A DNA stretch of 38,800 bases from Chloroflexota bacterium (GTDB taxonomy: Bacteria > Chloroflexota > Dehalococcoidia > Lucifugimonadales > UBA3495): positions 1-38,800 of the forward strand of contig JAPPJA010000422.1 of the NCBI GenBank assembly GCA_028874675.1, written 5' to 3'. How positions within the stretch are numbered: position 1 is the first letter of the stretch; each line of letters starts with the position of its first letter. This document shows positions 2,286-37,123 of this stretch, piece by piece. The notes under the pieces are model-generated. The model was given only the letters and a program-made list of their open reading frames with translations, did no database searches and was not told where the DNA came from. The position numbers and the translations under genes are program-made.

Positions 2286-3353
2286 ATGGTGATGGCTGAA
2301 GAAGAAGAACTGTTGGTAGAAGAAACTGAACCCTCGGATGATGAAGAAGTTCAGGATGTGCGCTATGACATAATGCCATACCCCGCCGACTACACTCTAA
2401 AAGGTCTGTACGACAAATGGCAAGCTGGCCAACTGCTGATTCCAGACTATCAGCGCAACTATGTCTGGACACAGAAACAGGCAAGTCAATTCATCGAGTC
2501 GTTTCTCTTGGGCTTGCCTGTTCCCCAAGTGTTCTTGTACCGGGATCGTTCTGATCCCAGGTTAACGGTTATTGACGGTCACCAGCGTCTCAGCACTATC
2601 GCCCGCTTTTATAGCGGGGAATTTCGCCTAAGGGATGTAAATTCCTTATGGGCAGGTCGGGCTTACGATGACCTCAGTGACTACGATAGGCCAATTCTCG
2701 ACGACTCAACCTTGCGGGCAATAATAATCAGGCAGATACAACCCGATAACAATTCGAGCATGTATCAGATTTTCCGAAGGCTCAACACTGGGGGCACCCA
2801 ACTGAATGACATGGAGATTAGGCGAGCGATTTCTTTCTCGCGCGAGGGTGCGGTTGGATTCTTGGATCGCCTCAACGAGAACGATGACTGGCGATCAATC
2901 ATTGGAACCAGCGAACCAGCCAAACGATTCCGTGATGTAGAATTGGTCCTTAGAGTTTTGGCGCTTTCTGAAAAATGGATGAACTACGGTGAACGAGAGT
3001 ATGGCGGACAGTCCATGAAGGCCTTCATGGACAAATATATGGAAGTCCTTGACAAGGAAGATTCTCCTACCTTAGACCAGTTAGAAGAACGGTTCAACGA
3101 AGCATGTCGAGCAATCGCATCACAGTTGGGAGAGAAACCTTTTCACCTAAGAGGAAGGCTGAATCTTGGTGCCTTAGACTCTGTGATGGCCTGTGCCATT
3201 GAATTAGGGGAGTCCCTAAAGGAGCAAATTAAAGAGGAATACGCAACATTGCGCGAAAACGACGAGTTCCTTGCAGCAGTGACACATGACACTAGCCATA
3301 CTACCGAAGTTAAACAGCGATTTAACTTGGTTCATTCTGCCTTTAGTGGCTAG
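2286..3353 (+). CDS. DUF262 domain protein (GmrS-like ParB/Srx-fold NTPase), no recognisable DUF1524/HNH nuclease domain
   Basis: ORF 2274-3353. ATG 2286 is preferred because GGAGA (2276-2280) lies 5 nt upstream; GTG 2274 is the alternative. Motifs IPDYQRNYVW, VIDGHQRLSTI and FRRLNTGGTQLNDMEIRRA. Helical C-terminal third. Codons are visibly AT-richer than the flanking genes. Confidence 0.85.
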   Translation: MVMAEEEELLVEETEPSDDEEVQDVRYDIMPYPADYTLKGLYDKWQAGQLLIPDYQRNYVWTQKQASQFIESFLLGLPVPQVFLYRDRSDPRLTVIDGHQRLSTIARFYSGEFRLRDVNSLWAGRAYDDLSDYDRPILDDSTLRAIIIRQIQPDNNSSMYQIFRRLNTGGTQLNDMEIRRAISFSREGAVGFLDRLNENDDWRSIIGTSEPAKRFRDVELVLRVLALSEKWMNYGEREYGGQSMKAFMDKYMEVLDKEDSPTLDQLEERFNEACRAIASQLGEKPFHLRGRLNLGALDSVMACAIELGESLKEQIKEEYATLRENDEFLAAVTHDTSHTTEVKQRFNLVHSAFSG

Positions 3354-3357
3354 GACT

Positions 3358-3852
3358 ATGCCAGATCTGTTGCCGTTGACCGGGGCTGCAATTGCAGACT
3401 ACCGGCAGCACATGAGCCAACATCCCGATACTGACCCCGTCATATTGGCCTACTTGAACAGACATATCAACGGGTTAATGTGTGCAGAGATTGAACAAGT
3501 AGTAACCAAGTTAATTTGCGAAAAGCTAGACGCAGGGCAGCAACATCCAGAAGCCCGGAGTTTTTTTCCAAGTTTCCTTGATGCAAGACGCATGGGTTGC
3601 TTAAGGAACGCGCGGGTCGATGAAATGCGAACTACCTTGTCCGCATTTGGATTGTATTATCGGAACAAGTTTAATGAACTATTGGACGGAGGCTTGAGTT
3701 CCGACGACATCAATAAACTGAACGCAGCGGTAAAGAAACGAAACGAAGACGCTCATAGCACGCCTCCAACCATCACTTTCCAAGAAGTCGAAGAAACCTA
3801 TGATGTTGCTACTGCCGTAATGGACGCAGTCCAACAAACCCTGCAAACCTGA
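3358..3852 (+). CDS. Small HEPN-domain protein (predicted RNase, Rx4H motif)
   Basis: ATG 3358 is 4 nt after the DUF262 stop (TAG 3351-3353). The upstream part of track ORF 3286-3852 overlaps that gene and was discarded. 164 aa, all-helical appearance, KKRNEDAH (R-x4-H) near the C-terminus. Low GC, like its partner. Confidence 0.7.
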   Translation: MPDLLPLTGAAIADYRQHMSQHPDTDPVILAYLNRHINGLMCAEIEQVVTKLICEKLDAGQQHPEARSFFPSFLDARRMGCLRNARVDEMRTTLSAFGLYYRNKFNELLDGGLSSDDINKLNAAVKKRNEDAHSTPPTITFQEVEETYDVATAVMDAVQQTLQT

Positions 3853-5329: not shown

Positions 5330-5911
5330 TTATGTATCGAGAGATTCCAGGTAACTGAAGAGCCGGTTGCAGGCAGGGGAGGCTGTACGGACTTTGGCAG
5401 GGTCTATGGCTTCCAACAAGCGGGGACCATGGTTAGTCTTGTGATATCGGCCTTTAGTGGTTGCCCTTGTGGCATCGGCCAACCCGCTCAGCACGTCATC
5501 TTTGGGAATTTCCTCAATGGCCGGATTGGCAGGGAGGCGGTTAGCCGAGAAGTCTCGACCATAATAAGCGCTGAGGGCCTGCTTGTCAGCCAGAAACCAG
5601 GATTCCATAACCTGCACCATGAAGTGGATACGGTCGTCAGATACATTTAAACCTGTGGCGTAGTCCCAGTGGTCATGTTGACGAACTTCCTGAAAGAGAT
5701 TGGTGGCATACGGTTTCTCGGCGTCGATCAAAAGGACATTAACCGCCTCGGGATAGTTCTTCAGGCCGGACGTAAAATCGGCTATGGCGTTGGCCTTGCA
5801 AGGCACCGGGGCAATTCTGATGCCGGGCAGTCTGAACCTTTCGAAGAACTTACTGAACCCTATTCGCAGGCTCCGGTCTCCCTCGAAATATACCCGGACA
5901 GCAGTCGCCAT
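5330..5911 (-). CDS. DUF4276 family protein (Toprim-like signature)
   Basis: 193 aa. N-terminal strand plus acidic motif VRVYFEGD, then VLLIDAE (DxD-like) and MESWFLAD. Its start codon directly abuts the stop of the upstream ATPase gene (5911/5912). Lower GC than the flanks. Confidence 0.75.
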   Translation of the reverse strand: MATAVRVYFEGDRSLRIGFSKFFERFRLPGIRIAPVPCKANAIADFTSGLKNYPEAVNVLLIDAEKPYATNLFQEVRQHDHWDYATGLNVSDDRIHFMVQVMESWFLADKQALSAYYGRDFSANRLPANPAIEEIPKDDVLSGLADATRATTKGRYHKTNHGPRLLEAIDPAKVRTASPACNRLFSYLESLDT

Positions 5912-7123
5912 TTAGAACCTGGTTCCCCCAATATGCCCGTGCAACCACAGCTCCCCTAACTTATACCGCTCCAGGTAAGACTCGAGCTCTTCCTTCTTCA
6001 ACCTATTGAACTCGGTCCCGGTATCCGGGTAGCGTTCACAGATAACCACGCTTTCCGGATCTTCCCAAAGGTGGTCAATCAACTCCGCCGAGTGGGTGGT
6101 GACGATAATCTGGGTGCGCTGAGAGGCCTCTATCAGTAACTTGGCGACCTGGTGGATTACGTCGGGGTGCAGGCCTAGTTCCGGTTCTTCAATGCATATG
6201 AGCGGGGGCGGATGGGGATGGCAGAGTATGGTGAGCAAGGCCAGGAATCTTAGTGTGCCGTCGGACAGTCGGGCGGCCGGCACAGGGTTATTCAGGCCTT
6301 TTTCGCGAATCCACAGCTGAGCTGTGTTGGCAAATATATCTATGCCCAAGCTTTCGTAAGTCTCATAGAATCGTCCAAGTTGTTCTTCGATAGTGGGCAT
6401 CACCGGTTCCCGCTTCAACCGGTTCAACACCAAGGCCAAGTTGGAAAAATCCTCGTACAATGCATCAGCGGGAGTATCAGTAGGTTGTGGCATACGGATA
6501 GCGCTTTTGCGCCCCATGTTCCATTCTCGGTAGAGGTGGATAACATTCATCTGTTCGCCGACATGAGTCATCTCAGGGTAGAACGAAGGGTCCCTTCGTT
6601 GACTAAATACTGATTGGTTCAGTTTCAGTTCGCCCAAACCAATTGGTTGGAACCAATAGTTCTCAAAGGGGCTGTCCGACATTCCTGCTGTATTCCAATT
6701 CCAAACGGCTAGGTTTCCTATCCCCCGGTTCAGATCAACTACTCTAAATGGAAGATTATCCGTATGACCAACTGAGTCAACGTATTCCATGCGTTCATAT
6801 TCTATGAATGGTTGCCAGCCCCACTGAGACAGCCCTACTGAATAACGTAACCCCACAGACCCGGGCGGGTGAGCAAGCGTCGCTACCAATCCACTAGTGT
6901 CGTTGTGGGTTCTACGGCCCTTCCAGAACCATTCTGATATTCCACCATTTGAACCCAAGAACCCTGCCAAATCCCTCGGCAAAGCTTGCAATAAAGCCAT
7001 GATCTCGATGAAGTTTGACTTCCCCGAAGCATTGGGGCCTACCAGGACGTTCAATGGACGCATTTCCAGTTCTACATCTCGGAAGGAAAGCATTCCATTA
7101 ACTTTTATCGAATTGAGCAGCAT
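5912..7123 (-). CDS. ABC/SMC-like ATPase (AAA_21/AAA_15 type, OLD/PARIS-AriA-like class)
   Basis: Walker A GPNASGKSN, signature-like LSDGTLRFLAL, Walker B/D-loop LICIEEPELGLHPD, H-loop VTTHS. ATG 7123 (MLLNSIKVNG...) is preferred; the track ORF extends to a TTG at 7168. A TATAAT on the minus strand lies at 7176-7171. Confidence 0.85.
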   Translation of the reverse strand: MLLNSIKVNGMLSFRDVELEMRPLNVLVGPNASGKSNFIEIMALLQALPRDLAGFLGSNGGISEWFWKGRRTHNDTSGLVATLAHPPGSVGLRYSVGLSQWGWQPFIEYERMEYVDSVGHTDNLPFRVVDLNRGIGNLAVWNWNTAGMSDSPFENYWFQPIGLGELKLNQSVFSQRRDPSFYPEMTHVGEQMNVIHLYREWNMGRKSAIRMPQPTDTPADALYEDFSNLALVLNRLKREPVMPTIEEQLGRFYETYESLGIDIFANTAQLWIREKGLNNPVPAARLSDGTLRFLALLTILCHPHPPPLICIEEPELGLHPDVIHQVAKLLIEASQRTQIIVTTHSAELIDHLWEDPESVVICERYPDTGTEFNRLKKEELESYLERYKLGELWLHGHIGGTRF

Positions 7124-7188
7124 AACTAACCCTGGCGGAAGGGCGATTCCCAAATTGGAGACTTGCAAAGATTATACACAGTCAAAGA

Positions 7189-12277: not shown

Positions 12278-13201
12278 CTAGTGGGTGTAGCGTATGCGCG
12301 GGTCCAGGTATGCGTAGGCAATATCCACCAGCAGGTTGGCTCCAATGTAAATGGCAGCGAAGAAAATCACTACCGACTGGACCACCGAGAAATCCTTGGC
12401 TCTCAATGCGTCGATAGCCAGCAGCCCCACACCGGGCCAGGAGAAGATGGACTCGATTACCACTGAGCCGGTCATGGCGCCGCCCAGGATCAGGCCAAAA
12501 TACGTTATGGGGGCGATGAGGGCGTTGCGGAGGGAGTGCTTCCAGATGACAGTGCTCTCCCGCAGCCCCTTGATGCGCGCCAGCTTTACGTATTCGGTGT
12601 CCAGCACCTCCAGCATGGAGGAGCGGGTCAGCCGCATCAGGGCCGCCACCTGGAAATAACCCAGCGCAATACCGGGCATCAGCAGGTGCTTCCAGGTGCC
12701 CCTGCCCGAAGTGGGCAGCCACTCAAGCTGGACGGCAAACACCCACATCAGCATCAGCGCAATCCAGAAGTTGGGAAGGGACTGGCCCAAAAGGGCAACA
12801 ATTTTGCCGGCAAAATCTATGCCCGTATCTTTCTTTACGGCCACTATGACGCCAAGCGGGACGGCAATTATCGCGCTGACCACCAGGGCAATGGCCGCCA
12901 GTTCCAGGGTTGCGGGAAGCCGTTGCCACAGCAGTTCACGCGCGTCCTGGCCGGCGAACCGGATGGATTCGCCGAACTTGCCGGTGGCAAAGTTGCCGAT
13001 GTAGGTCAGGTACTGGATGTGAAGGGGCTTGTCCAGGCCCCAGTAGGCCCGAACCCTGGCGTAGTCTTCAACAGTGGCATCCACGTCCAGCAGGGTGTCC
13101 AGCGGGTCCCCGGACATGCGGCCCAACCCGAACACAATGATGCTTACCGCCACCAGCGCGATGATCGAGTGGAAGATGCGGACCAATATGAAGCGTTGCA
13201 T
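12278..13201 (-). CDS. ABC transporter permease (DppB/OppB-like)
   Basis: 307 aa. The typical DppB N-terminus MQRFILVRIFHSIIAL, and YVKLARIKGL in the EAA loop. Confidence 0.85.
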   Translation of the reverse strand: MQRFILVRIFHSIIALVAVSIIVFGLGRMSGDPLDTLLDVDATVEDYARVRAYWGLDKPLHIQYLTYIGNFATGKFGESIRFAGQDARELLWQRLPATLELAAIALVVSAIIAVPLGVIVAVKKDTGIDFAGKIVALLGQSLPNFWIALMLMWVFAVQLEWLPTSGRGTWKHLLMPGIALGYFQVAALMRLTRSSMLEVLDTEYVKLARIKGLRESTVIWKHSLRNALIAPITYFGLILGGAMTGSVVIESIFSWPGVGLLAIDALRAKDFSVVQSVVIFFAAIYIGANLLVDIAYAYLDPRIRYTH

Positions 13202-13660
13202 ATCGCTTTTCCTGAAGGCCCCAGGACGGGTCGGCTACTACCTGTACACGCCCGCCCCGGCTATCCGAAACAAGGCAAAACAAAAGGGCCAAGAGTCCTC
13301 AATTTCGCCTGGCCTTGGCGTTTAGGCAATATATTCTACCGATATGGGTATGTCAATACTCGGCATGGCCCGCCGCAACCCCGCTCCACTGAAGGGCTGG
13401 GCAGCCCTTTAGACACGAGTTTCCCGCAAGAGGCCGCTGGCGCTTGCTTTGCCACAGGAACCCCTTTCGGGGAACGGATTAAGGCAAGAATGCCGTAAAT
13501 TACTACGATATACATATAGCAAAAGTTATATTGCACCGAGTAATGCATATGAGTATGGTGTACGATTATACGGCACTATATTCTGAATATATTTATGGTT
13601 TTCGTGATAAATATTCCAAAATATAGTGTCTTAAGTAAGATAATATTAGATTATTGTGTG

Positions 13661-13690
13661 TTGACAATCAACAAAGGCGTAAAATATACT
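13661..13690 (+). promoter_or_regulatory. Sigma70-like promoter, TTGACA-18 nt-TATACT, for SBP paralogue 1
   Basis: TTGACA at 13661-13666 and TATACT at 13685-13690, at the end of a roughly 160-bp AT-rich block. About 95-nt leader to ATG 13791. Confidence 0.55.
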
Positions 13691-13790
13691 GCCCGAAATT
13701 CGTAGAAGGCCGTTCTACCCGACGCGGATTCATACCTGACCACAGTGGCGGACCCTGAACTCGAAGCCCTGAAATTGGGAGGTGATATCC

Positions 13791-15671
13791 ATGGCGCACC
13801 ATTGGTGGAACATACCCAGGTCGGCACTAATTGGTTCCCTGATTCTGGCACTGACTTTCCTGGTGGCCTGCGGCACTGCCGCTCCTGAGGTGGTGGAGAG
13901 GGAGGTCATTAGGGAAGTTCAGGTCGAGGTTCCCAAAGAGGTTGAGGTAGTGAGGCAAGTGGAAGTTCCCGTGGAGGTGGAAAAGGAAGTTCTAAAGGAA
14001 GTGGAGGTGGTCAAGGAGGTCGAGGTACTCAAGGAAATTCCCAAGGAAACCGTGGTAGAGAGAACGGTAATCGCCACTCCCACTCCCATTCCAGCGGTAA
14101 TGGAGCAGGTGGAGGCCAAGGTTGACCGCGTCATCTACGCCCTGGGCGAAGTGCAGGAAACCAACCGGCACTGGACCGTTAGCCGTCCCTCCTACTACCA
14201 GTTTGACCCCTACGCCGAGACCCTGATCGGTCTGGATGCGCAGACCAACGAACGCATTCCGCGTCTGGCAGAAAGCTGGGAGACTACTCCCGACGGCCGG
14301 ACCTGGACGTTCAACCTGGTTGAGGGTGTGCCTTTCCATTACGGTTACGGAGAATTCACCTCCGCCGACGTAATTGCCGCCTTTGACCGTGTGCTGGGTG
14401 ATGACGCTCAGTCTTCCTCAGCCAATACCTTGTTGAGGAACGCGGAGTACAGCGCCATAGACGATTACACCGTGGAGTTGAATTTCCCAACCATTGCCGT
14501 CGACACCGCTGCAATTCTTTCCCGAGGCTTTGGCGGCGGGGAAATCTTGATGCTCAGCAAGAACCAGTTTGATAATGTGGGCGTGGAAGGCTTTGATGAA
14601 CAGCCTGCCGGCACCGGTTCTTATCAATACCTGGGCCGCGAAGTAGGCAAGGGCATCTGGTTTGAAAAGGCCCCCGGCAACCACTGGCGCGGCGAAAATC
14701 CCGATTTCCAGGAAGTAGAACTCCGTTGGGTTCGGGAAGACCTGACTCGCCTGGCCGCCCTGCTGACCGGTGAAATCCACGTAGCCGCCCTCTCCCGGGA
14801 GCTCCAGTTGGAAGCCGGTCGGCGCGGCATGCTGCCAGCGGCCGCCGGTGTACCGACAAACTACCTGAGCCTGTTCCTGGGCGGTCAGTACTATGCCGCA
14901 TTCCAGGAAAGTTACGACCCCAGCGTACCTTGGGCAAGTCCTGAAACCGGCAAGCTGGTCCGCCAGGCCATGAACAAGGCAATTAACCGGCAGGAAATGC
15001 TGGACCACGTCCTGAAGGGCGATGGGGAAATCATGCTCATTACCCAGTATCACCCGGTCCTTGGTGTCTGGAATGATCAGTGGGAAGCGGACTGGGAAGA
15101 GCACTATGGATATGATCCGGACGCAGCCAGGGAACTGATGGCCCAGGCTGGCTACACGCCGGACAACCCCATGCCCTTCACTTCCTACAACTACTTCTCC
15201 GCCGACGAGCCGGAGACCGCGGTAATGCTGGAAGCCCTGATCAACTATTGGGAGCCCGTCGGCATTGATGTAACCCTGCTGGACAGCGAGTGGGGCACGG
15301 TTCGCAGCAACTACCGCGAGCGCACCGACTTTATCAAGAAGGGCGGTTGGGGCAACGTCATCACGATGAGGGCTCTGACTACTCATCTGCGTAATTCCAG
15401 TTCCGCAGGCGGAACTGGCGGCGCTTACCACTCCCAGGTGATTGAAGATAGCTATGCTGCTTTCCAGGCTCTGGACACGGCAGACTGGGACTTCATCAAC
15501 GAGATACTGCTGGAGGTGGGGGACGACCGTTACTACAACTTCGGCGACATTCCTTTCTTCTGGTTCCGTCTGACGGTAATGTTCAACCCTGAGGTGGTAG
15601 AAAGCTGGACTTTCCCAGGTACCGCAGGCTCGAAGACCAGCCACTGGAATCTGCTCAAGGCAGCCCAGTAG
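13791..15671 (+). CDS. ABC transporter substrate-binding lipoprotein, family 5, with (E/K)V-repeat stalk (paralogue 1)
   Basis: ATG 13791 lies 8 nt after GGGAGG. Lipobox LVAC|GT, EV-rich linker, SBP_bac_5-like body. Co-linear with, and highly similar to, the 15955-17835 product. Confidence 0.9.
   Translation: MAHHWWNIPRSALIGSLILALTFLVACGTAAPEVVEREVIREVQVEVPKEVEVVRQVEVPVEVEKEVLKEVEVVKEVEVLKEIPKETVVERTVIATPTPIPAVMEQVEAKVDRVIYALGEVQETNRHWTVSRPSYYQFDPYAETLIGLDAQTNERIPRLAESWETTPDGRTWTFNLVEGVPFHYGYGEFTSADVIAAFDRVLGDDAQSSSANTLLRNAEYSAIDDYTVELNFPTIAVDTAAILSRGFGGGEILMLSKNQFDNVGVEGFDEQPAGTGSYQYLGREVGKGIWFEKAPGNHWRGENPDFQEVELRWVREDLTRLAALLTGEIHVAALSRELQLEAGRRGMLPAAAGVPTNYLSLFLGGQYYAAFQESYDPSVPWASPETGKLVRQAMNKAINRQEMLDHVLKGDGEIMLITQYHPVLGVWNDQWEADWEEHYGYDPDAARELMAQAGYTPDNPMPFTSYNYFSADEPETAVMLEALINYWEPVGIDVTLLDSEWGTVRSNYRERTDFIKKGGWGNVITMRALTTHLRNSSSAGGTGGAYHSQVIEDSYAAFQALDTADWDFINEILLEVGDDRYYNFGDIPFFWFRLTVMFNPEVVESWTFPGTAGSKTSHWNLLKAAQ
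13884..14069 (+). repeat. Purine-rich quasi-hexanucleotide (GARGTN)n tract encoding the (E/K)V-repeat stalk
   Basis: Encodes PEVVEREVIREVQVEVPKEVEVVRQVEVPVEVEKEVLKEVEVVKEVEVLKEIPKETVVERTV. It produces a Thr/Ser-rich shadow ORF on the opposite strand. Confidence 0.8.
15165..15331 (+). repeat. 167-bp tract 100% identical to 17326-17492 (inside SBP paralogue 1)
   Basis: Base-by-base comparison at an offset of 2161 nt. Mismatches lie immediately outside both ends (15164 and 15332), and substitutions are frequent in the flanking coding sequence. Confidence 0.85.
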
Positions 15672-15723
15672 CGATATTCGCGCCAACGACGATCTGCCAG
15701 ATCGCCGTACCGCTTTAGATTTC

Positions 15724-15763
15724 AGACGGCTTACGACATCATTTGCGTAAGCCGTCTTTTATT
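15724..15763 (+). terminator. Rho-independent terminator between the SBP paralogues
   Basis: Perfect 12-bp stem agacggcttacg (15724-15735) / cgtaagccgtct (15746-15757), 10-nt loop, then ttttatt. Confidence 0.8.
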
Positions 15764-15841
15764 GTGTTAATAATCGGATTTTAGGTTTAAATGTCCACTG
15801 TTTCATCCAGAAACTCATCAAATGGAGCGTAATATGTGCTA

Positions 15842-15871
15842 TTGACACCCCAAAAAACGGGGGTCTATACT
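15842..15871 (+). promoter_or_regulatory. Sigma70-like promoter, TTGACA-18 nt-TATACT, for SBP paralogue 2
   Basis: TTGACA at 15842-15847 and TATACT at 15866-15871. Same hexamers and spacing as the promoter at 13661. About 77-nt leader to ATG 15955. Confidence 0.55.
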
Positions 15872-15954
15872 CGGGCAGATTTCCGGGAGGCCAAGGCGTC
15901 TTCGCCCTCCGGAAGCTTGTATCCCAAGTTAAGAATTGGGGAGGTAACTTTATA

Positions 15955-17835
15955 ATGGGTTTTTGGTCGAAAAAGGGACCCCGCGCACTATTAGCTGGTG
16001 TCTTGATTAGTGTGCTCGCCTTCGTGGTGGCCTGCGGTTCCGCAGCTCCCGAGGTTGTCGAAAGGGAGGTTGTCAGAGAGGTAACCGTAGAGGTACCCAA
16101 GGAAGTCGAGGTTGTCAAGGAAGTCGAGGTACCCGTAGAGGTAGAGAGAGAGGTAGTCAGGGAAGTCGAGGTTGTCAAGGAAGTTGAGGTGCTGAAGGAA
16201 GTACCTAAGGAAACCGTCGTCGAAAAGACAGTCATCGCCACCCCGACTCCCATCCCCGCAATGATGGCAGAGGTCGAGGCAAAGGTCGAACGCGTAATCT
16301 ACGCCCTGGGTGAAGTGCAGGAGACCAACCGGCACTGGACCGTCGGCCGACCTTCTTACTATCAGTTTGACCCCTATTCGGAAACCCTGATTGGCCTGGA
16401 CGCCCAGACCAACGAGCGCATCCCCCGCCTGGCCAAGTCCTGGGAGTCGTCTCCCGACGGCCGGGTCTGGACCTTCAACCTGGAAGAGGGAGTTCCCTTC
16501 CACTTCGATTACGGGGAATTCACCTCCGCGGACGTTGTAGCGTCCTTTGACCGGATTCTCGGTGAAGATTCGCAGGTATCCGCAGTCTCATTCTTTAATG
16601 GGGCCACCTACGAGGCGCTGGACGACTACACCGTGCAACTATCTTTCCCGTCCATCGCCCTGGACACGCCCTCCATCGTTTCCCGCGGCTTTGGCGGCGG
16701 CGAAATTATGATGCTCAGCAAGAAGCAGTTTGACGACGTCGGCGTCGAGGGCTTCGACGAACAGCCGGCCGGCACCGGTTCCTACCAGTACGGCGGCAAG
16801 ACCCTGGGCCAGGGCATCTGGTTCGAGAAGGCCGCACAGCCCCACTGGCGCGGTGAGAATCCCGACTTCGATGAAGTGGAACTGCGCTGGGTCCGCGAGG
16901 ACCTGACTCGCCTGGCGGCCTTGCTCACCGGTGAGATTCACGTCGCGGCCCTGTCTCGCGAACTGCAGCTGGAAGCCGGAAGGCGCGGCATGCAGCCCGC
17001 CGCGGCCGGCGTGCCCACCAACTACCTGACCATGTTCCTGGGCGGCCAGTACTACGGCGCCTACCAGGATGACTATGACCCCAGCGTACCCTGGGCAAGC
17101 CCCGAAACCGGCAAGATGGTACGCCAGGCCATGAACAAGGCCATCAACCGGCAGGAAATGCTGGACCACGTACTTAAGGGCGACGGCGAACTGATGCTGC
17201 TTACCCAGTATCACCCCGTCCTCGGTACCTGGAACGAACAGTGGGAAGCAGACTGGGAAGAGTATTATGGCTATGATCAGGAAGCGGCAAAGCAGCTTAT
17301 GGCCCAGGCTGGCTTCAGCCCGGAGAACCCCATGCCCTTCACTTCCTACAACTACTTCTCCGCCGACGAGCCGGAGACCGCGGTAATGCTGGAAGCCCTG
17401 ATCAACTATTGGGAGCCCGTCGGCATTGATGTAACCCTGCTGGACAGCGAGTGGGGCACGGTTCGCAGCAACTACCGCGAGCGCACCGACTTCATCAAGA
17501 AGGGCGGCTGGGGCAACGTTATCACCATGCGGTCCCTGACCAACCGGCTGCGCAGCTGGTCCTCCGCGCAGGGCGTGGGTGGCGCCGGATACTACTCCGA
17601 CATCATTGAGCGCAATTATGCCGCTTACCAGGCCCTGGATACCGCGGACTACGACCGGATCAACGAGCTGCTCCTGGAAGTTGGCGACGACAAGTTCTAC
17701 AACTTTGCCGACATCCCCTTCTTCTGGTTCAGCCTGACGGTAATGTTCAACCCCGACGTGGTTGAGAGCTGGACCTTCCCCGGCACCGCCGGTTCGAAGA
17801 CCAGCCACTGGAACCTGCTTCGCGCAGCCCAGTAA
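15955..17835 (+). CDS. ABC transporter substrate-binding lipoprotein, family 5, with (E/K)V-repeat stalk (paralogue 2)
   Basis: ATG 15955 lies after GGGGAGG. Lipobox VVAC|GS, EV-rich linker of the same length as paralogue 1, SBP_bac_5-like body. Confidence 0.9.
   Translation: MGFWSKKGPRALLAGVLISVLAFVVACGSAAPEVVEREVVREVTVEVPKEVEVVKEVEVPVEVEREVVREVEVVKEVEVLKEVPKETVVEKTVIATPTPIPAMMAEVEAKVERVIYALGEVQETNRHWTVGRPSYYQFDPYSETLIGLDAQTNERIPRLAKSWESSPDGRVWTFNLEEGVPFHFDYGEFTSADVVASFDRILGEDSQVSAVSFFNGATYEALDDYTVQLSFPSIALDTPSIVSRGFGGGEIMMLSKKQFDDVGVEGFDEQPAGTGSYQYGGKTLGQGIWFEKAAQPHWRGENPDFDEVELRWVREDLTRLAALLTGEIHVAALSRELQLEAGRRGMQPAAAGVPTNYLTMFLGGQYYGAYQDDYDPSVPWASPETGKMVRQAMNKAINRQEMLDHVLKGDGELMLLTQYHPVLGTWNEQWEADWEEYYGYDQEAAKQLMAQAGFSPENPMPFTSYNYFSADEPETAVMLEALINYWEPVGIDVTLLDSEWGTVRSNYRERTDFIKKGGWGNVITMRSLTNRLRSWSSAQGVGGAGYYSDIIERNYAAYQALDTADYDRINELLLEVGDDKFYNFADIPFFWFSLTVMFNPDVVESWTFPGTAGSKTSHWNLLRAAQ
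16048..16233 (+). repeat. Purine-rich (GARGTN)n tract encoding the (E/K)V-repeat stalk of paralogue 2
   Basis: Encodes PEVVEREVVREVTVEVPKEVEVVKEVEVPVEVEREVVREVEVVKEVEVLKEVPKETVVEKTV. Confidence 0.8.
17326..17492 (+). repeat. 167-bp tract 100% identical to 15165-15331 (inside SBP paralogue 2)
   Basis: See the feature at 15165-15331. Confidence 0.85.
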
Positions 17836-22318: not shown

Positions 22319-22347
22319 CAATAACACTGTTGTTTATAAGTGTCAAC
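22319..22347 (-). promoter_or_regulatory. Candidate promoter for the Fe ABC SBP-permease operon (TTGACA-17-TATTGT on the minus strand)
   Basis: tgtcaa at 22342-22347 and acaata at 22319-22324 on the plus strand, in an AT-rich block. It implies a leader of about 195 nt. Confidence 0.35.
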
Positions 22348-22752
22348 AATTTTAACTGGCATTTGCCAGCGCCTCCGGCAGCGCAACCAACCGCCGGCGT
22401 ACTTCAACAAGGCAAAAACAAACCCGGGCCCGGCGCGGCCCTCAATCACTTCTGGTAAGGGAGGTCTGGCCTGGAATCGGGGCTTGAGACCTCTTACTTT
22501 ACACCCCGCCGGGGGCTCCGGAGAGCGGGGTCATGAGCCCAAGGGTTGGTCTGCTTACGCCATCGCTGCCAGTTGCCGAATTAGTGAAATTGCGAACAAT
22601 TGCAGTTTAGAAACACAGCGCCGGATAGCCGCCCAGAAGAGGATAGTTGGCGTAATTCACCTCAAACAAACTGCGGTATGTTCCTGCCAATCAACATGCG
22701 AAAACTATTGCATTCGTCTGTCATAACCTTTATTATTGTGTCGGCTTAAAAG

Positions 22753-34515: not shown

Positions 34516-34872
34516 ATGAGCATCTTCCATTACCCGTTGGAAATCACCGGCCCGGATGCCAGCGAATTCCAGGAAGTAATGGCCCTGGTTGACACCGGCG
34601 CTACCTTCACGCAGGTACCCGCAACTTTGCTTCGCAATTTGGGCGTCCAGCCCACCGAAAACGTCAGGTTCCGCCTGGCCGATGGCTCAACAATACAGCG
34701 AGCCATCGGTGAAACCCGGGTCCGCATCGAGGCCCAAATCGTTAACACCGTGGTTGTCTTCGGAGATGACAACCACGATGCGCTGCTGGGCGTCTACACC
34801 CTGGAACGCGCCCTCCTGGCGGTTGACCCCGCAGGCCAGCGCCTGATCCCCACCGACGCCCTCTTGGTATAG
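34516..34872 (+). CDS. Retropepsin-like (clan AA) aspartic protease, single domain
   Basis: 118 aa with ALVDTGAT (D-T-G active-site triad), a length typical of homodimeric bacterial retropepsin-like proteins. Confidence 0.7.
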   Translation: MSIFHYPLEITGPDASEFQEVMALVDTGATFTQVPATLLRNLGVQPTENVRFRLADGSTIQRAIGETRVRIEAQIVNTVVVFGDDNHDALLGVYTLERALLAVDPAGQRLIPTDALLV

Positions 34873-35087
34873 CCTTTATTGAAATGGTTTTGAAGGTTGA
34901 ATCCTTCCATCCAGGCCCCATGTCCAAAGGGCACATCGTGGTTTAGGGTGAGCAACCAACTCGCAAACGCTCCCACCACGAGGCTGGCAGGAAGGGTAAG
35001 GAAAGGTGGAATCAACGCGTGAATTTGGCAAGGTAACGCTTGCGGCGCGAATGCCCCCTGACAGATACGGGACCGGAGGTTTTTGCT

Positions 35088-35408
35088 GTGGTAAGCACTA
35101 TTCTCAAGTGTTACCTTTGGCGAAGTGATAACGAATGGGAAGCTCTTTGCGTGGACTTTGATATAGCCGCTCAAGGCGAAACCTATGAGGAGGCCTTTGA
35201 GCAGCTAAAAGGTGCCATTGAAACTTATGTGGAATACGTTCACTCCCTTCCACAACATGAGCATTTGAAGTTTTTTACTCGTCGCTCTCCCCTTGCCCTT
35301 CGCATTAAGTTGGCGCTGTTTTCCAAGATAACTGGCCTCCTCAGACCTGTTTCCAACAACGGGCCGAAAGGCACTGTCCAGGAAACCTTTGAATATGCTA
35401 CGACGTGA
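35088..35408 (+). CDS. hicB: HicB-family antitoxin (UPF0150-like)
   Basis: GTG 35088 lies 8 nt after GGAGGT; the track ORF starts at TTG 35040. WEALCVDFDIAAQGETYEEAFEQLKGAIETYVEYV matches the HicB N-terminal fold pattern. Its stop overlaps the hicA start (GTGA). Low GC. Confidence 0.7.
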   Translation: MVSTILKCYLWRSDNEWEALCVDFDIAAQGETYEEAFEQLKGAIETYVEYVHSLPQHEHLKFFTRRSPLALRIKLALFSKITGLLRPVSNNGPKGTVQETFEYATT

Positions 35409-35617
35409 GTTACGGCAGGTTCGTGGATATATTGGAAGGTAACGGGTTTCACCTTGAAAGACAGAGAGGCTCTCATCACATATACGAAGGTTACGTTAAC
35501 GAGCAGCGAAAGTCAGTTACTGTAAGCTACTCGCGACGGAACCAGGATATTAAGGCGGGGACACTCAGTAGCATGATTCGTCAATCAGGACTGCCTAGGA
35601 AGTTGTTCCGTAGATAA
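35405..35617 (+). CDS. hicA: HicA-family mRNA interferase toxin (YcfA-like)
   Basis: 70 aa. FVDILEGNGFHLERQRGSHHIY...GTLSSMIRQSGL is typical of HicA, with the catalytic His in GSHH. Confidence 0.8.
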   Translation: MSYGRFVDILEGNGFHLERQRGSHHIYEGYVNEQRKSVTVSYSRRNQDIKAGTLSSMIRQSGLPRKLFRR

Positions 35618-35854
35618 CGGCGATTCCAGGATGAGAGATTAGGGGGCAGCCATTGATTAGCGGCGGCGGCCCTTCGTGGGAGACCATTTTGGATGCTGTC
35701 AATTTCCCTCTGGGCATTCCGATTCGGACTTGCAACTCTTGAATTAGAATGGCCTCTCGATGCATAGCCACCTACGCACGCTAGGTAAGAAGAGATAATT
35801 CCCGTGGTTCCATAGGCCAGGTCTCCGACACAACACTCCCCCAGGGTTTCAGCC

Positions 35855-37123
35855 ATGATTGCCCGTCTCCGTACTTCCCTGTCCTGGATGAACCGCGACG
35901 CCAGGCTGATAACCCTGGCCCGGGGTGTCCGCACCTTCTCCCAGAGCTTCATTGCCGTCATCATGGCAATCTATCTCGCCGAGCTGGGCTTCAACCTGGT
36001 GCAGATTGGCGCGGTCCTTACCGTGGGTGTTGCCGGCGTCTCCTTCTTTGCCCTGGTGGTGGGCCTGATCAGTGAAAGGGTGGGTCGCCGGCGTCTGCTG
36101 GTCCTCTTCTCCCTGTTGGCGGCGGCGGCCGGGGTAGGCATGTACTTCGCCGAGGCCTTCGTCCCTCTGCTGATCATCGCCTTCCTGGGAAGCCTGTCCA
36201 CGGGCGGCGGCGGTGGCGAAAGCCCGGCGCAGCCCCTGGAAGTTGCCATCCTCCCCGACACCGGCCCTCCCGAAAGGCGCACCGACATCTTTGCCGTCTA
36301 CAGCATTGTGGCCCGCACCGGCACCTTCCTGGGAGCCCTGGCCGCTGGAATGCCCGTCCTGCTTCAGGACGTGCTGGGTCTGTCCCTCCTCTCCTCCTAC
36401 AAGGCGATGTTCCTTGGCTTTGCCCTGTGCCAGCTTGCCGGGGCGGCCCTGTACCTTTTCGTCTCGTCGAGCGTGGAGGGCGCCGCCACTCGCCAGCAGT
36501 GGCAAAACCCGTTCAGGCTGCCCTCCCGGCGCAGAATATTCACCCTGATTACCCTTTACAGCGTGGACACCTTCACTACCTCCATGGTAATGCAGAGCCT
36601 GGTCGCCTACTGGTTTTACACGAAGTTCGGCCTGCCGGTTGAATCCCTCGCCCTGGTCTTCTCCTTGTCCCACCTCCTGACCGCATCATCCCTGTGGATA
36701 TCAGCCAAGATAGCAAACCGGATCGGCCTCCTGAACACGATGGTATTCACCCACATTCCATCCAGCTTCTTTCTGCTGGCCGCCGCCTTCGCTCCCACGG
36801 CCCCGCTGGCCATCGTGTTCTGGCAATGCCGCGCCTTCCTGAGCCAGATGGATGTTCCCACCAGGGACTCCTACAATATGTCGGTCATTAACTCCGAGGA
36901 ACGGGTAGCAATGGCCAGCATCAACATGGTGACGCGGAGCGCCGCCGGGGCAGTGGGGCCCTCGGTGACTACGGCCATCTGGAACATCACCGCCGCCTGG
37001 GCGCCGCTGGTGGGCTCCGCTCTCCTCAAGATCGGCTACGACCTGTCGCTCTATTTCATGTTCCGCAACGTCCGCCCCCCTGAGGAAGAGGAACGGCTGC
37101 GTAACCGGCGTCAGGGGCGATAA
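35855..37123 (+). CDS. MFS transporter
   Basis: 422 aa, about 12 TM segments. GRRRLLV-type loop 2-3 motif ([11 protein letters not shown]). Confidence 0.85.

Follow-up and report, generated by a model that had tools for sequence, protein, structure and literature searches.

The question raised by this locus is whether two adjoining genes on the minus strand of a Chloroflexota genome, one encoding an ATPase and the other a small DUF4276 protein, form an autonomous defence module against phages. The genes lie within positions 1 to 38,800 of contig JAPPJA010000422.1 (GenBank assembly GCA_028874675.1; class Dehalococcoidia), and we use "the window" for this whole stretch of 38,800 nt. A preceding reading of the DNA made without database searches (the sequence-only reading) had proposed a split ATPase plus Toprim-like pair of the OLD/PARIS kind as a candidate defence module, and the predicted folds, the acidic residues and the PADLOC matches described below support that proposal. 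We found that the pair is a member of HEC-01, a candidate system against phages that PADLOC already lists. We consider it probable that the pair is a free-standing HEC-01 defence module, a two-protein relative of OLD, PARIS and AbiL.

A two-gene member of HEC-01

Both proteins matched the PADLOC models of HEC-01. The ATPase matched the HEC-01A model PDLC04177 at 7.1e-134 over residues 1-403 of 403, and the small protein, encoded next to it on the same strand, matched the HEC-01B model PDLC04201 at 7.4e-55 over residues 5-190 of 193; a HEC-01A match with an adjacent HEC-01B match is what PADLOC takes as HEC-01. Pfam placed the small protein in DUF4276 (2.5e-19), as the sequence-only reading had proposed from its motifs, and the ATPase in AAA_21 (1e-36) and AAA_15 (1e-19). 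Other PADLOC models matched the ATPase more weakly, namely AriA (3.5e-37), AbiLi (1.3e-23), mad3 (1.1e-22) and NsnB (6e-18), and the Old match was also much weaker. Because HEC-01A scored 7e-134 against 3.5e-37 for AriA, the ATPase appears to be related to AriA without being a member of that family. The pair belongs to HEC-01 alone, and it probably works like the related systems. Separately, the model PDLC04144, although labelled HEC-01B, matched the ATPase (8.7e-25) and not the DUF4276 protein, an apparent mislabel in the model library.

We scanned one genome per species for relatives of the small protein, which gave 370 relatives, and fetched 80 of the loci (L001-L005 and L083-L103 below are loci of related genomes). 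These loci came mostly from metagenome-assembled genomes of Dehalococcoidia and other Chloroflexota, Acidobacteriota, Longimicrobiales and Myxococcota. In 79 of these loci, the gene directly preceding the DUF4276 gene, in the same orientation, encoded an ATPase homologue; the lone exception was cut by a contig end. Among the 78 loci in which both genes could be located, the stop and start codons overlapped by 4 nt in 42 and by 7 nt in 21 and abutted exactly in 4, which brings the genes that overlap or abut to 67; gaps of 2 nt, 5 nt and 14 nt occurred in 9, 1 and 1 loci, respectively. The window copy is of the abutting type, its ATPase stop codon TAA (5914-5912) being followed without a gap by the ATG (5911-5909) of the 193-amino acid open reading frame (ORF), as the sequence-only reading had seen. 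No conserved third gene was found, and the next most recurrent neighbour cluster was present in at most 11 of the 80 loci. Searching 1.84 billion representative proteins with a profile returned 2,610 DUF4276 clusters (50% identity) at E ≤ 1e-3; the best 150 relatives were all stand-alone proteins of ~200 amino acids, and fusion to an ATPase is therefore not seen among them. These results show that the pairing is obligate and strictly two-gene and indicate that the genes are translationally coupled.

We used AlphaFold2 to predict the structure of the DUF4276 protein from an alignment of 55 homologues. The model had a pLDDT (predicted local distance difference test) of 95.5 and a pTM (predicted template modelling score) of 0.90, and it revealed strands at residues 3-10, 31-38, 57-64 and 95-99 that alternate with helices, followed by a helical C-terminal half. 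The top match in a Foldseek search of the PDB was 6nk8_A, the C-terminal Toprim-containing region of the Burkholderia pseudomallei OLD protein (BpOLD), with a probability of 1.00 and a template modelling (TM) score of 0.55, and this was the sole PDB match with a TM score above 0.5. TsOLD from Thermus ranked 3rd and GajA 13th in the same list, and the other matches were generic alpha/beta folds with TM scores of 0.2-0.3. A Foldseek search of BFVD returned nothing meaningful.

The motifs VYFEGD (residues 7-12), VLLIDAE (59-65) and MESWFLAD (102-109), from which a Toprim-type E...DxD acidic signature had been proposed, are all present in the translation. The glutamate E10 was conserved in every homologue with a residue at that column, D63 was found in all 55 homologues, and each of these has E or D at position 65, giving a Dx[D/E] motif. 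The proposed signature therefore stands, on a fold closest to the OLD Toprim: the model combines a four-strand alpha/beta fold, a glutamate after strand 1 and a DxD-type motif after strand 3, the features of the Toprim superfamily. DUF4276 has also already been published as a Toprim, related to Mad4 of MADS, and HEC-01B was called a TOPRIM with a conserved metal site when the family was described (Payne et al., bioRxiv 10.1101/2024.01.29.577857). A sequence profile search of the PDB found no DUF4276 relative. Since tests on sequence alone are blind to this relationship, the assignment leans on structure, motifs and literature, which together support the small protein as a predicted OLD-like Toprim. 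As a further observation, the N-terminal half of the protein (residues 1-77; 5680-5911), especially residues ~13-60, was far more variable than the C-terminal half, and window positions 5680-5985 had no DNA match to L005 while both sides aligned.

For the ATPase, all the motifs named in the sequence-only reading (GPNASGKSN, LSDGTLRFLAL at residues 286-296, LICIEEPELGLHPD and VTTHS) were found in the translation. Across 72 ATPase homologues, G34, K35 and S36 of the P-loop were invariant, as were L286, S287, D288, G289 and T290 of the signature, E312 and E313 of Walker B, and T343 and S345 of the H-loop, with H344 present in at least 90%. Its AlphaFold2 model had a pLDDT of 89, and the best Foldseek matches were PtuA, Rad50, TsOLD and SMC heads at ~1e-12; by sequence, phmmer matched OLD proteins weakly and in the N-terminal part only. 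The protein thus combines Walker A, signature, Walker B, D-loop and H-loop with an ABC head fold, the features of the SMC/Rad50/OLD clade of ABC ATPases. Because the model matches PtuA, Rad50, TsOLD and SMC heads, HEC-01A is, on its predicted structure, an ABC ATPase and not an AAA+ protein, in agreement with Payne et al. (bioRxiv 10.1101/2024.01.29.577857). The end of the protein drew our attention separately: residues 395-403 (5912-5938) carry a conserved GELW..G.IGG.R[W/F] tail, in which G399 and G400 are invariant and R402 is kept in at least 90%. This tail was modelled with low confidence (pLDDT 43-63) and could serve as a peptide that docks onto the Toprim partner or a neighbouring protomer.

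The copies from which HEC-01 was defined lay inside Hma (helicase-methylase-ATPase) systems (Payne et al., bioRxiv 10.1101/2024.01.29.577857), and the layout of HEC-01, in which a stand-alone TOPRIM/DUF4276 protein follows an ABC ATPase, is the one seen here. The original copies were Hma-embedded, whereas the window copy and the 79 relatives examined are free-standing; the experimentally tested representatives are other sequences. No Hma gene adjoined the pair in the window or in 40 related loci scanned. Such embedding is the context in which HEC-01 was discovered and is not demanded by the PADLOC model.

We compared the pair with the other systems that combine an ABC ATPase with a Toprim, among which MADS3-4 has already been listed. 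Mad3-Mad4 of MADS from Pseudomonas aeruginosa likewise consists of an AAA_15/21-type ABC ATPase and a DUF4276 Toprim, but the window ATPase scored 83.5 bits against the NCBIfam MAD3 model, below its cut-off of 420 bits, and Mad1, Mad2 and Mad5-8 are absent from the window. We also considered MADS on account of mad3 and mad8 PADLOC matches elsewhere in the window and rejected it, because they stem from an ABC-transporter ATPase of the usual kind that carries a TOBE domain. PARIS is likewise split into an ATPase (AriA) and a Toprim (AriB); however, AriB is a DUF4435 protein of ~35 kDa, whereas the effector here is a DUF4276 protein of 193 amino acids with no AriB match, AriA is ~100 residues longer than the window ATPase, and neither a phage nor a satellite context came to light. 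In the OLD family (P2 Old, BpOLD, TsOLD, GajA and the retron Eco8 effector), ATPase and Toprim are fused, whereas here they are two genes. The likeness to OLD lies in the ATPase, which matches TsOLD by structure and OLD proteins weakly by sequence, and in the small protein, whose best structural match covers the Toprim and helical parts of BpOLD. Neither a UvrD-like helicase nor a reverse transcriptase adjoins the window pair; Gabija needs GajA together with the UvrD-like helicase GajB. AbiL likewise consists of two genes, AbiLi and AbiLii with its RloB-type Toprim, and the ATPase matches AbiLi, but no RloB/AbiLii match was found. Menshen, in which DUF4276 occurs as the NsnC effector domain, needs contiguous NsnA-NsnB-NsnC, whereas the NsnA-like gene of the window (2286-3353) precedes a HEPN gene and not the ATPase.

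A variable slot and a hypervariable insert

The pair stands out from its surroundings in composition. Both genes had been described as lower in GC than the FEN gene upstream and the hydantoinase gene downstream, and this proved correct: the GC content was 0.506 for the ATPase gene and 0.534 for the DUF4276 gene, compared with 0.660 for FEN and 0.639 for the hydantoinase. At third codon positions (GC3), the values were 0.572 and 0.608 for the pair against 0.814 for FEN and 0.843 for the hydantoinase, with flanking genes at 0.78-0.86 overall and the pair at 0.57-0.61. From this contrast, the pair is accessory and of foreign composition.

The order M28 peptidase, aminotransferase, FEN, slot A, hydantoinase, slot B and SBP_bac_5 is shared by ~20 species-level genomes. 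Slot A holds HEC-01 in five of them, namely the window, L083 (the same as L001), L091 (L005), L095 (L004) and L099, and is empty (68-211 bp) in L089, L097 and L103; elsewhere it carries other low-GC cargo, including PDC-S11, NYN, HARE-HTH and EEP-nuclease genes and cassettes without assigned function. Slot B contains a GmrSD_N plus HEPN_RiboL-PSP pair in the window, L097, L099 and L103, a HEC-04 ATPase-Toprim fusion in L083 (9436-11010; 3e-39) and L101 (9501-11126; 4e-38), and nothing in the others. HEC-04 is an experimentally validated defence system (Payne et al., bioRxiv 10.1101/2024.01.29.577857). The slot B cargo of the window has a GC content of 0.48, with Pfam matches to GmrSD_N (1.4e-27) and HEPN_RiboL-PSP (6.9e-14); its DUF262 protein matched the PADLOC models NsnA (1.1e-66) and PD-T4-2_A (2.1e-42), and its HEPN_RiboL-PSP protein matched no PADLOC model. 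L003 has the DUF262 and HEPN genes directly adjoining HEC-01, as four contiguous genes. A comparison of filled and empty sites revealed no evident target-site duplication or integrase at the slot borders, and the 38.8-kb window contains no tRNA gene and therefore no integration-site signature. These comparisons show that the pair resides in a variable slot that in sister genomes holds other defence candidates or nothing.

Some of the remaining slot A cargo is worth describing in its own right. A low-GC cassette on the opposite strand occurs in L090 (6252-7777) and also in L084, L093, L096 and L101, with variants in L087, L099 and L102. It encodes a conserved ~125-amino acid protein with the motif APWREAVTYRDTWPHEYVL and no Pfam or PADLOC match, together with a variable partner: PDC-S11 (2e-46; in L099, upstream of HEC-01), an Exo_endo_phos nuclease, a HARE-HTH protein or an unannotated protein of ~365 amino acids. 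This arrangement looks like an unnamed adaptor plus variable-effector module. The slot in L092 holds an NYN/HEC-09-like protein beside an unannotated 187-amino acid ORF. The RHO, IRC and SB bin names of the isolates presumably point to sponge metagenomes.

Within the pair itself, variation is concentrated in one region of the ATPase. Between the window and L001, flanking genes were 94-98% identical and the ATPase just 70%, a difference that traced to residues 69-195. The amino acid identity was 87% for residues 1-68, 28% for the insert 69-195 and 90% for residues 196-403; the corresponding values against L004 were 88%, 75% and 81%. At the DNA level, window positions 6541-6918 had no match in L001, L002, L003 or L005, while both sides aligned at ~90%. 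Across the 72 homologues, the mean pairwise identity fell from 67% in the core to 30% in the insert; of 213 pairs exceeding 80% identity in the core, 138 stayed below 40% in the insert. AlphaFold2 modelled the insert as six beta strands, a beta-rich elaboration of the ABC head. The window and L004, whose flanks are more distant, have the insert allele in common, whereas the window DUF4276 allele is 90% identical to that of L001 and 54% to that of L004. Because the insert resembles L004 while the core and the DUF4276 protein resemble L001, the locus is a recombinant mosaic. A constant catalytic chassis bearing a replaceable surface cassette is the pattern that would be expected of a sensor in an arms race, and in PARIS the poorly conserved regions of AriA are thought to recognise triggers. 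Cassette-style diversification of this single surface region points to selection for changing specificity.

Coordinates and other features of the window

The positions of the features are collected in Table 1. The ORF listing gave the ATPase as 5912..7168 on the minus strand, opening at a TTG, and the small protein as 5330..5911 on the same strand. We dropped the TTG at 7168 as a start in favour of the ATG at 7123, because homologue N-termini are conserved from there and the public gene call on the identical contig has the same coordinates. The ATPase, which had been put at ~404 residues, therefore has 403 residues. The octamer TGTATAAT is also kept upstream of the ATPase in L083, L091, L095 and L099, where the surrounding spacers diverge, and the pair may be under its own promoter. 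A generic promoter and terminator scan did not rise above chance, for which reason we treat TGTATAAT as a lead only.

Table 1 Positions of the HEC-01 pair, its functional elements and the neighbouring slot B cargo in the window
Feature	Positions	Strand	Basis
HEC-01A, ABC (SMC/Rad50/PtuA/OLD-type) ATPase, 403 aa	5912..7123	-	PADLOC, Pfam, AlphaFold2, Foldseek
HEC-01B, DUF4276 Toprim-like protein with C-terminal helical domain, predicted nuclease effector, 193 aa	5330..5911	-	PADLOC, Pfam, AlphaFold2, Foldseek
Walker A / P-loop GPNASGKSN, residues 29-37, K35 catalytic lysine	7013..7039	-	Translation
Hypervariable beta-rich insert, residues 69-195, proposed trigger-sensing cassette	6539..6919	-	DNA and protein comparison, model
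ABC signature LSDGT, residues 286-290	6254..6268	-	Translation; within LSDGTLRFLAL
Walker B and D-loop LICIEEPELGLHPD, residues 308-321, E313 catalytic glutamate	6161..6202	-	Translation
H-loop VTTHS, residues 341-345	6089..6103	-	Translation
TAA-ATG junction	5909..5914	-	Read from the sequence; indicates translational coupling
E10 codon, Toprim glutamate ending strand 1	5882..5884	-	53/53 homologues with a residue at the column
D63-A-E65, Toprim DxD-type motif ending strand 3	5717..5725	-	Homologue alignment and model
E103 of MESWFLAD, invariant acidic residue just past strand 4	5603..5605	-	55/55 homologues
TGTATAAT, -10-like element, possibly the pair's own promoter	7171..7178	-	48 nt upstream of the ATPase start
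Slot B cargo: GmrSD_N/DUF262 (2286-3353) and HEPN_RiboL-PSP (3370-3852)	2286..3852	+	Pfam, PADLOC

The rest of the window is housekeeping in character (transporters, an amidase, a tRNA synthetase and dehydrogenases), and the sole PADLOC matches there come from the ABC-transporter ATPase. Three paralogous SBP_bac_5 genes encoding proteins of ~630 amino acids are found at 260-2158, 13782-15671 and 15955-17835 (+), two of them in tandem, and the GC content dips to 0.51-0.54 in the 13,000-16,500 interval around the tandem copies. Low-GC patches (0.51-0.53) at 22340-22726 (+) and 34794-35964 carry ORFs of 122-128 amino acids without a Pfam match, between transporter genes.

Function of the pair and competing explanations

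How would such a module act? By analogy with PARIS and OLD, which provide the precedent for an ATPase sensor with a Toprim effector, an oligomer of HEC-01A would hold the Toprim protein HEC-01B inactive until the beta-rich insert (residues 69-195) recognised a phage-derived trigger. Binding or hydrolysis of ATP at the dimerised heads would then release or activate HEC-01B, which, with metal ions bound by E10, D63, E65 and E103, may cut phage or host DNA or tRNA and so stop (abort) the infection. AriB is a tRNase, as is P2 Old according to a 2026 preprint, so that tRNA and DNA are equally plausible substrates.

The sequence-only reading held that the pair had not been experimentally characterised, a statement that is outdated: HEC-01 is catalogued in PADLOC and has undergone two tests, of which one was negative and one positive. 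With a HEC-01 representative from a cold seep, E. coli was protected from one or more of T4, T5 and T7. For the related MADS, deletion of mad3 or mad4 weakens defence. Furthermore, HEC-01 is reported to rank with the commonest candidate systems of environmental metagenomes.

Several observations weigh against a defence function or against the Toprim assignment on which it builds. The first test of HEC-01, in E. coli MG1655 with BASEL and classic phages, showed no protection (bioRxiv 10.1101/2024.01.29.577857). The complex, the trigger, the substrate and the abortive outcome are drawn by analogy with PARIS and OLD. The E-value of the Foldseek match to 6nk8_A was just 5.6e-3. When the DUF4276 profile was aligned by hhalign to HEC-04 (L083) and P2 Old, the probabilities were 1.8% and 0.2%, neither significant; with single sequences as targets, this comparison is not informative. 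A tblastn search of phage and plasmid collections with DUF4276 returned no relatives. In addition, when two genes on each side were scanned in the first 40 loci, the neighbours across the wider family were mostly housekeeping genes (MFS transporters, luciferase-like monooxygenase, CoaE and GFO/IDH oxidoreductases), and few matched defence models, these being type I and type IIG restriction-modification, NsnA, HEC-04 and another ATPase.

Because these neighbours are mostly metabolic or transport genes, the HEC-01 clade studied here lies outside Hma and MADS systems and is not typical of defence islands. The genomic-association evidence comes from the local hotspot and not from the family as a whole. 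These housekeeping contexts are nevertheless not conserved, so the pair sits in no housekeeping operon. A conserved operon with the hydantoinase across taxa, which would have spoken against the sequence-only reading, was likewise not seen: hydantoinase and DUF4276 occurred together in 3 of 80 DUF4276 loci and in 4 of 80 hydantoinase loci, all from close relatives.

We weighed four other explanations against a free-standing HEC-01 defence module. The discovery of HEC-01 inside Hma systems, the ATPase-plus-DUF4276 make-up of Mad3-Mad4, a pair needed for MADS defence, and the weak matches of the ATPase to the mad3 models of PADLOC and NCBIfam could suggest that the pair is a non-autonomous ATPase-nuclease arm of an Hma/MADS-type methylation system with its partners elsewhere in the genome. 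We consider this highly improbable: the MAD3 score falls far short of its cut-off, no methyltransferase, helicase or other MADS component lies in the 38.8-kb window, where the mad3 and mad8 matches belong to the ABC-transporter ATPase, and no such partner recurs near the pair across the 80 loci. A housekeeping role in repair or recombination, with the pair acting as a RecF-RecR-like module alongside the adjacent FEN 5'-3' exonuclease, would account for the position directly downstream of FEN on the same strand, for weak SMC_N and RecF N-terminal matches of the ATPase and for the housekeeping neighbours in the wider family. Adjacency to FEN is, however, limited to five close genomes, and ~15 syntenic relatives have FEN without the pair; moreover, the GC3 of the pair is far below that of its flanks, the best model matches are to defence systems, and a hypervariable insert and mosaic alleles would be unexpected in a core repair factor. 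We therefore rate this explanation as very unlikely.

Very little probability attaches to a Menshen-like composite in which the pair and the GmrSD_N/DUF262 and HEPN genes form one system split apart by the hydantoinase gene. The two halves occur apart, HEC-01 alone in L083, L091 and L095 and the DUF262 plus HEPN genes alone in L097 and L103, even though the window and L099 have both pairs and L003 has all four genes contiguous. The two pairs are also convergent, with the hydantoinase between them in the window, and a DUF262 neighbour was present in 1 of the 40 HEC-01 loci scanned. The NsnA match of the DUF262 protein, the NsnB match of the ATPase and the known role of DUF4276 as the NsnC effector domain do speak for a composite, but the NsnB score is far under that of HEC-01A. 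The last explanation is a selfish addiction-type or decaying cassette, a toxic nuclease checked by its ATPase and kept by post-segregational killing or drift. It draws on the one direct test without defence, on the chromosomal position among housekeeping genes with no mobile-element link and on the patchy distribution among close relatives. Against it, both ORFs are intact, the catalytic residues are kept in the homologues examined, the family comprises ~2,600 clusters at 50% identity, a second study reports protection, and the cassette-style diversification points to selection for changing specificity; we regard it as unlikely.

With a free-standing HEC-01 defence module as the reading that we prefer, the present analysis adds no new class of system; it adds strict two-gene autonomy, a hypervariable and exchangeable insert, and a two-slot hotspot in a Dehalococcoidia lineage. 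Published tests leave the function of HEC-01 unsettled, and this locus shows the pair as an autonomous two-gene unit outside Hma and MADS. The insert offers a concrete hypothesis for the site of trigger sensing, together with a natural allele set. The same flanks carrying HEC-01, other candidates or nothing support an immune role in a phylum without genetic tools. Beyond this, we tentatively propose a broader picture, in which the insert would be a recombination-exchangeable specificity cassette similar to the target-recognition domains of HsdS, the FEN-hydantoinase-SBP locus a two-slot hotspot without recognisable mobile-element machinery, and the ~125-amino acid cassette a further unnamed defence family. 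If this is true, exchange of the insert would direct an otherwise unchanged ATPase-Toprim chassis at new phage triggers, and both whole systems and sensor cassettes would turn over in a two-slot chromosomal locus.

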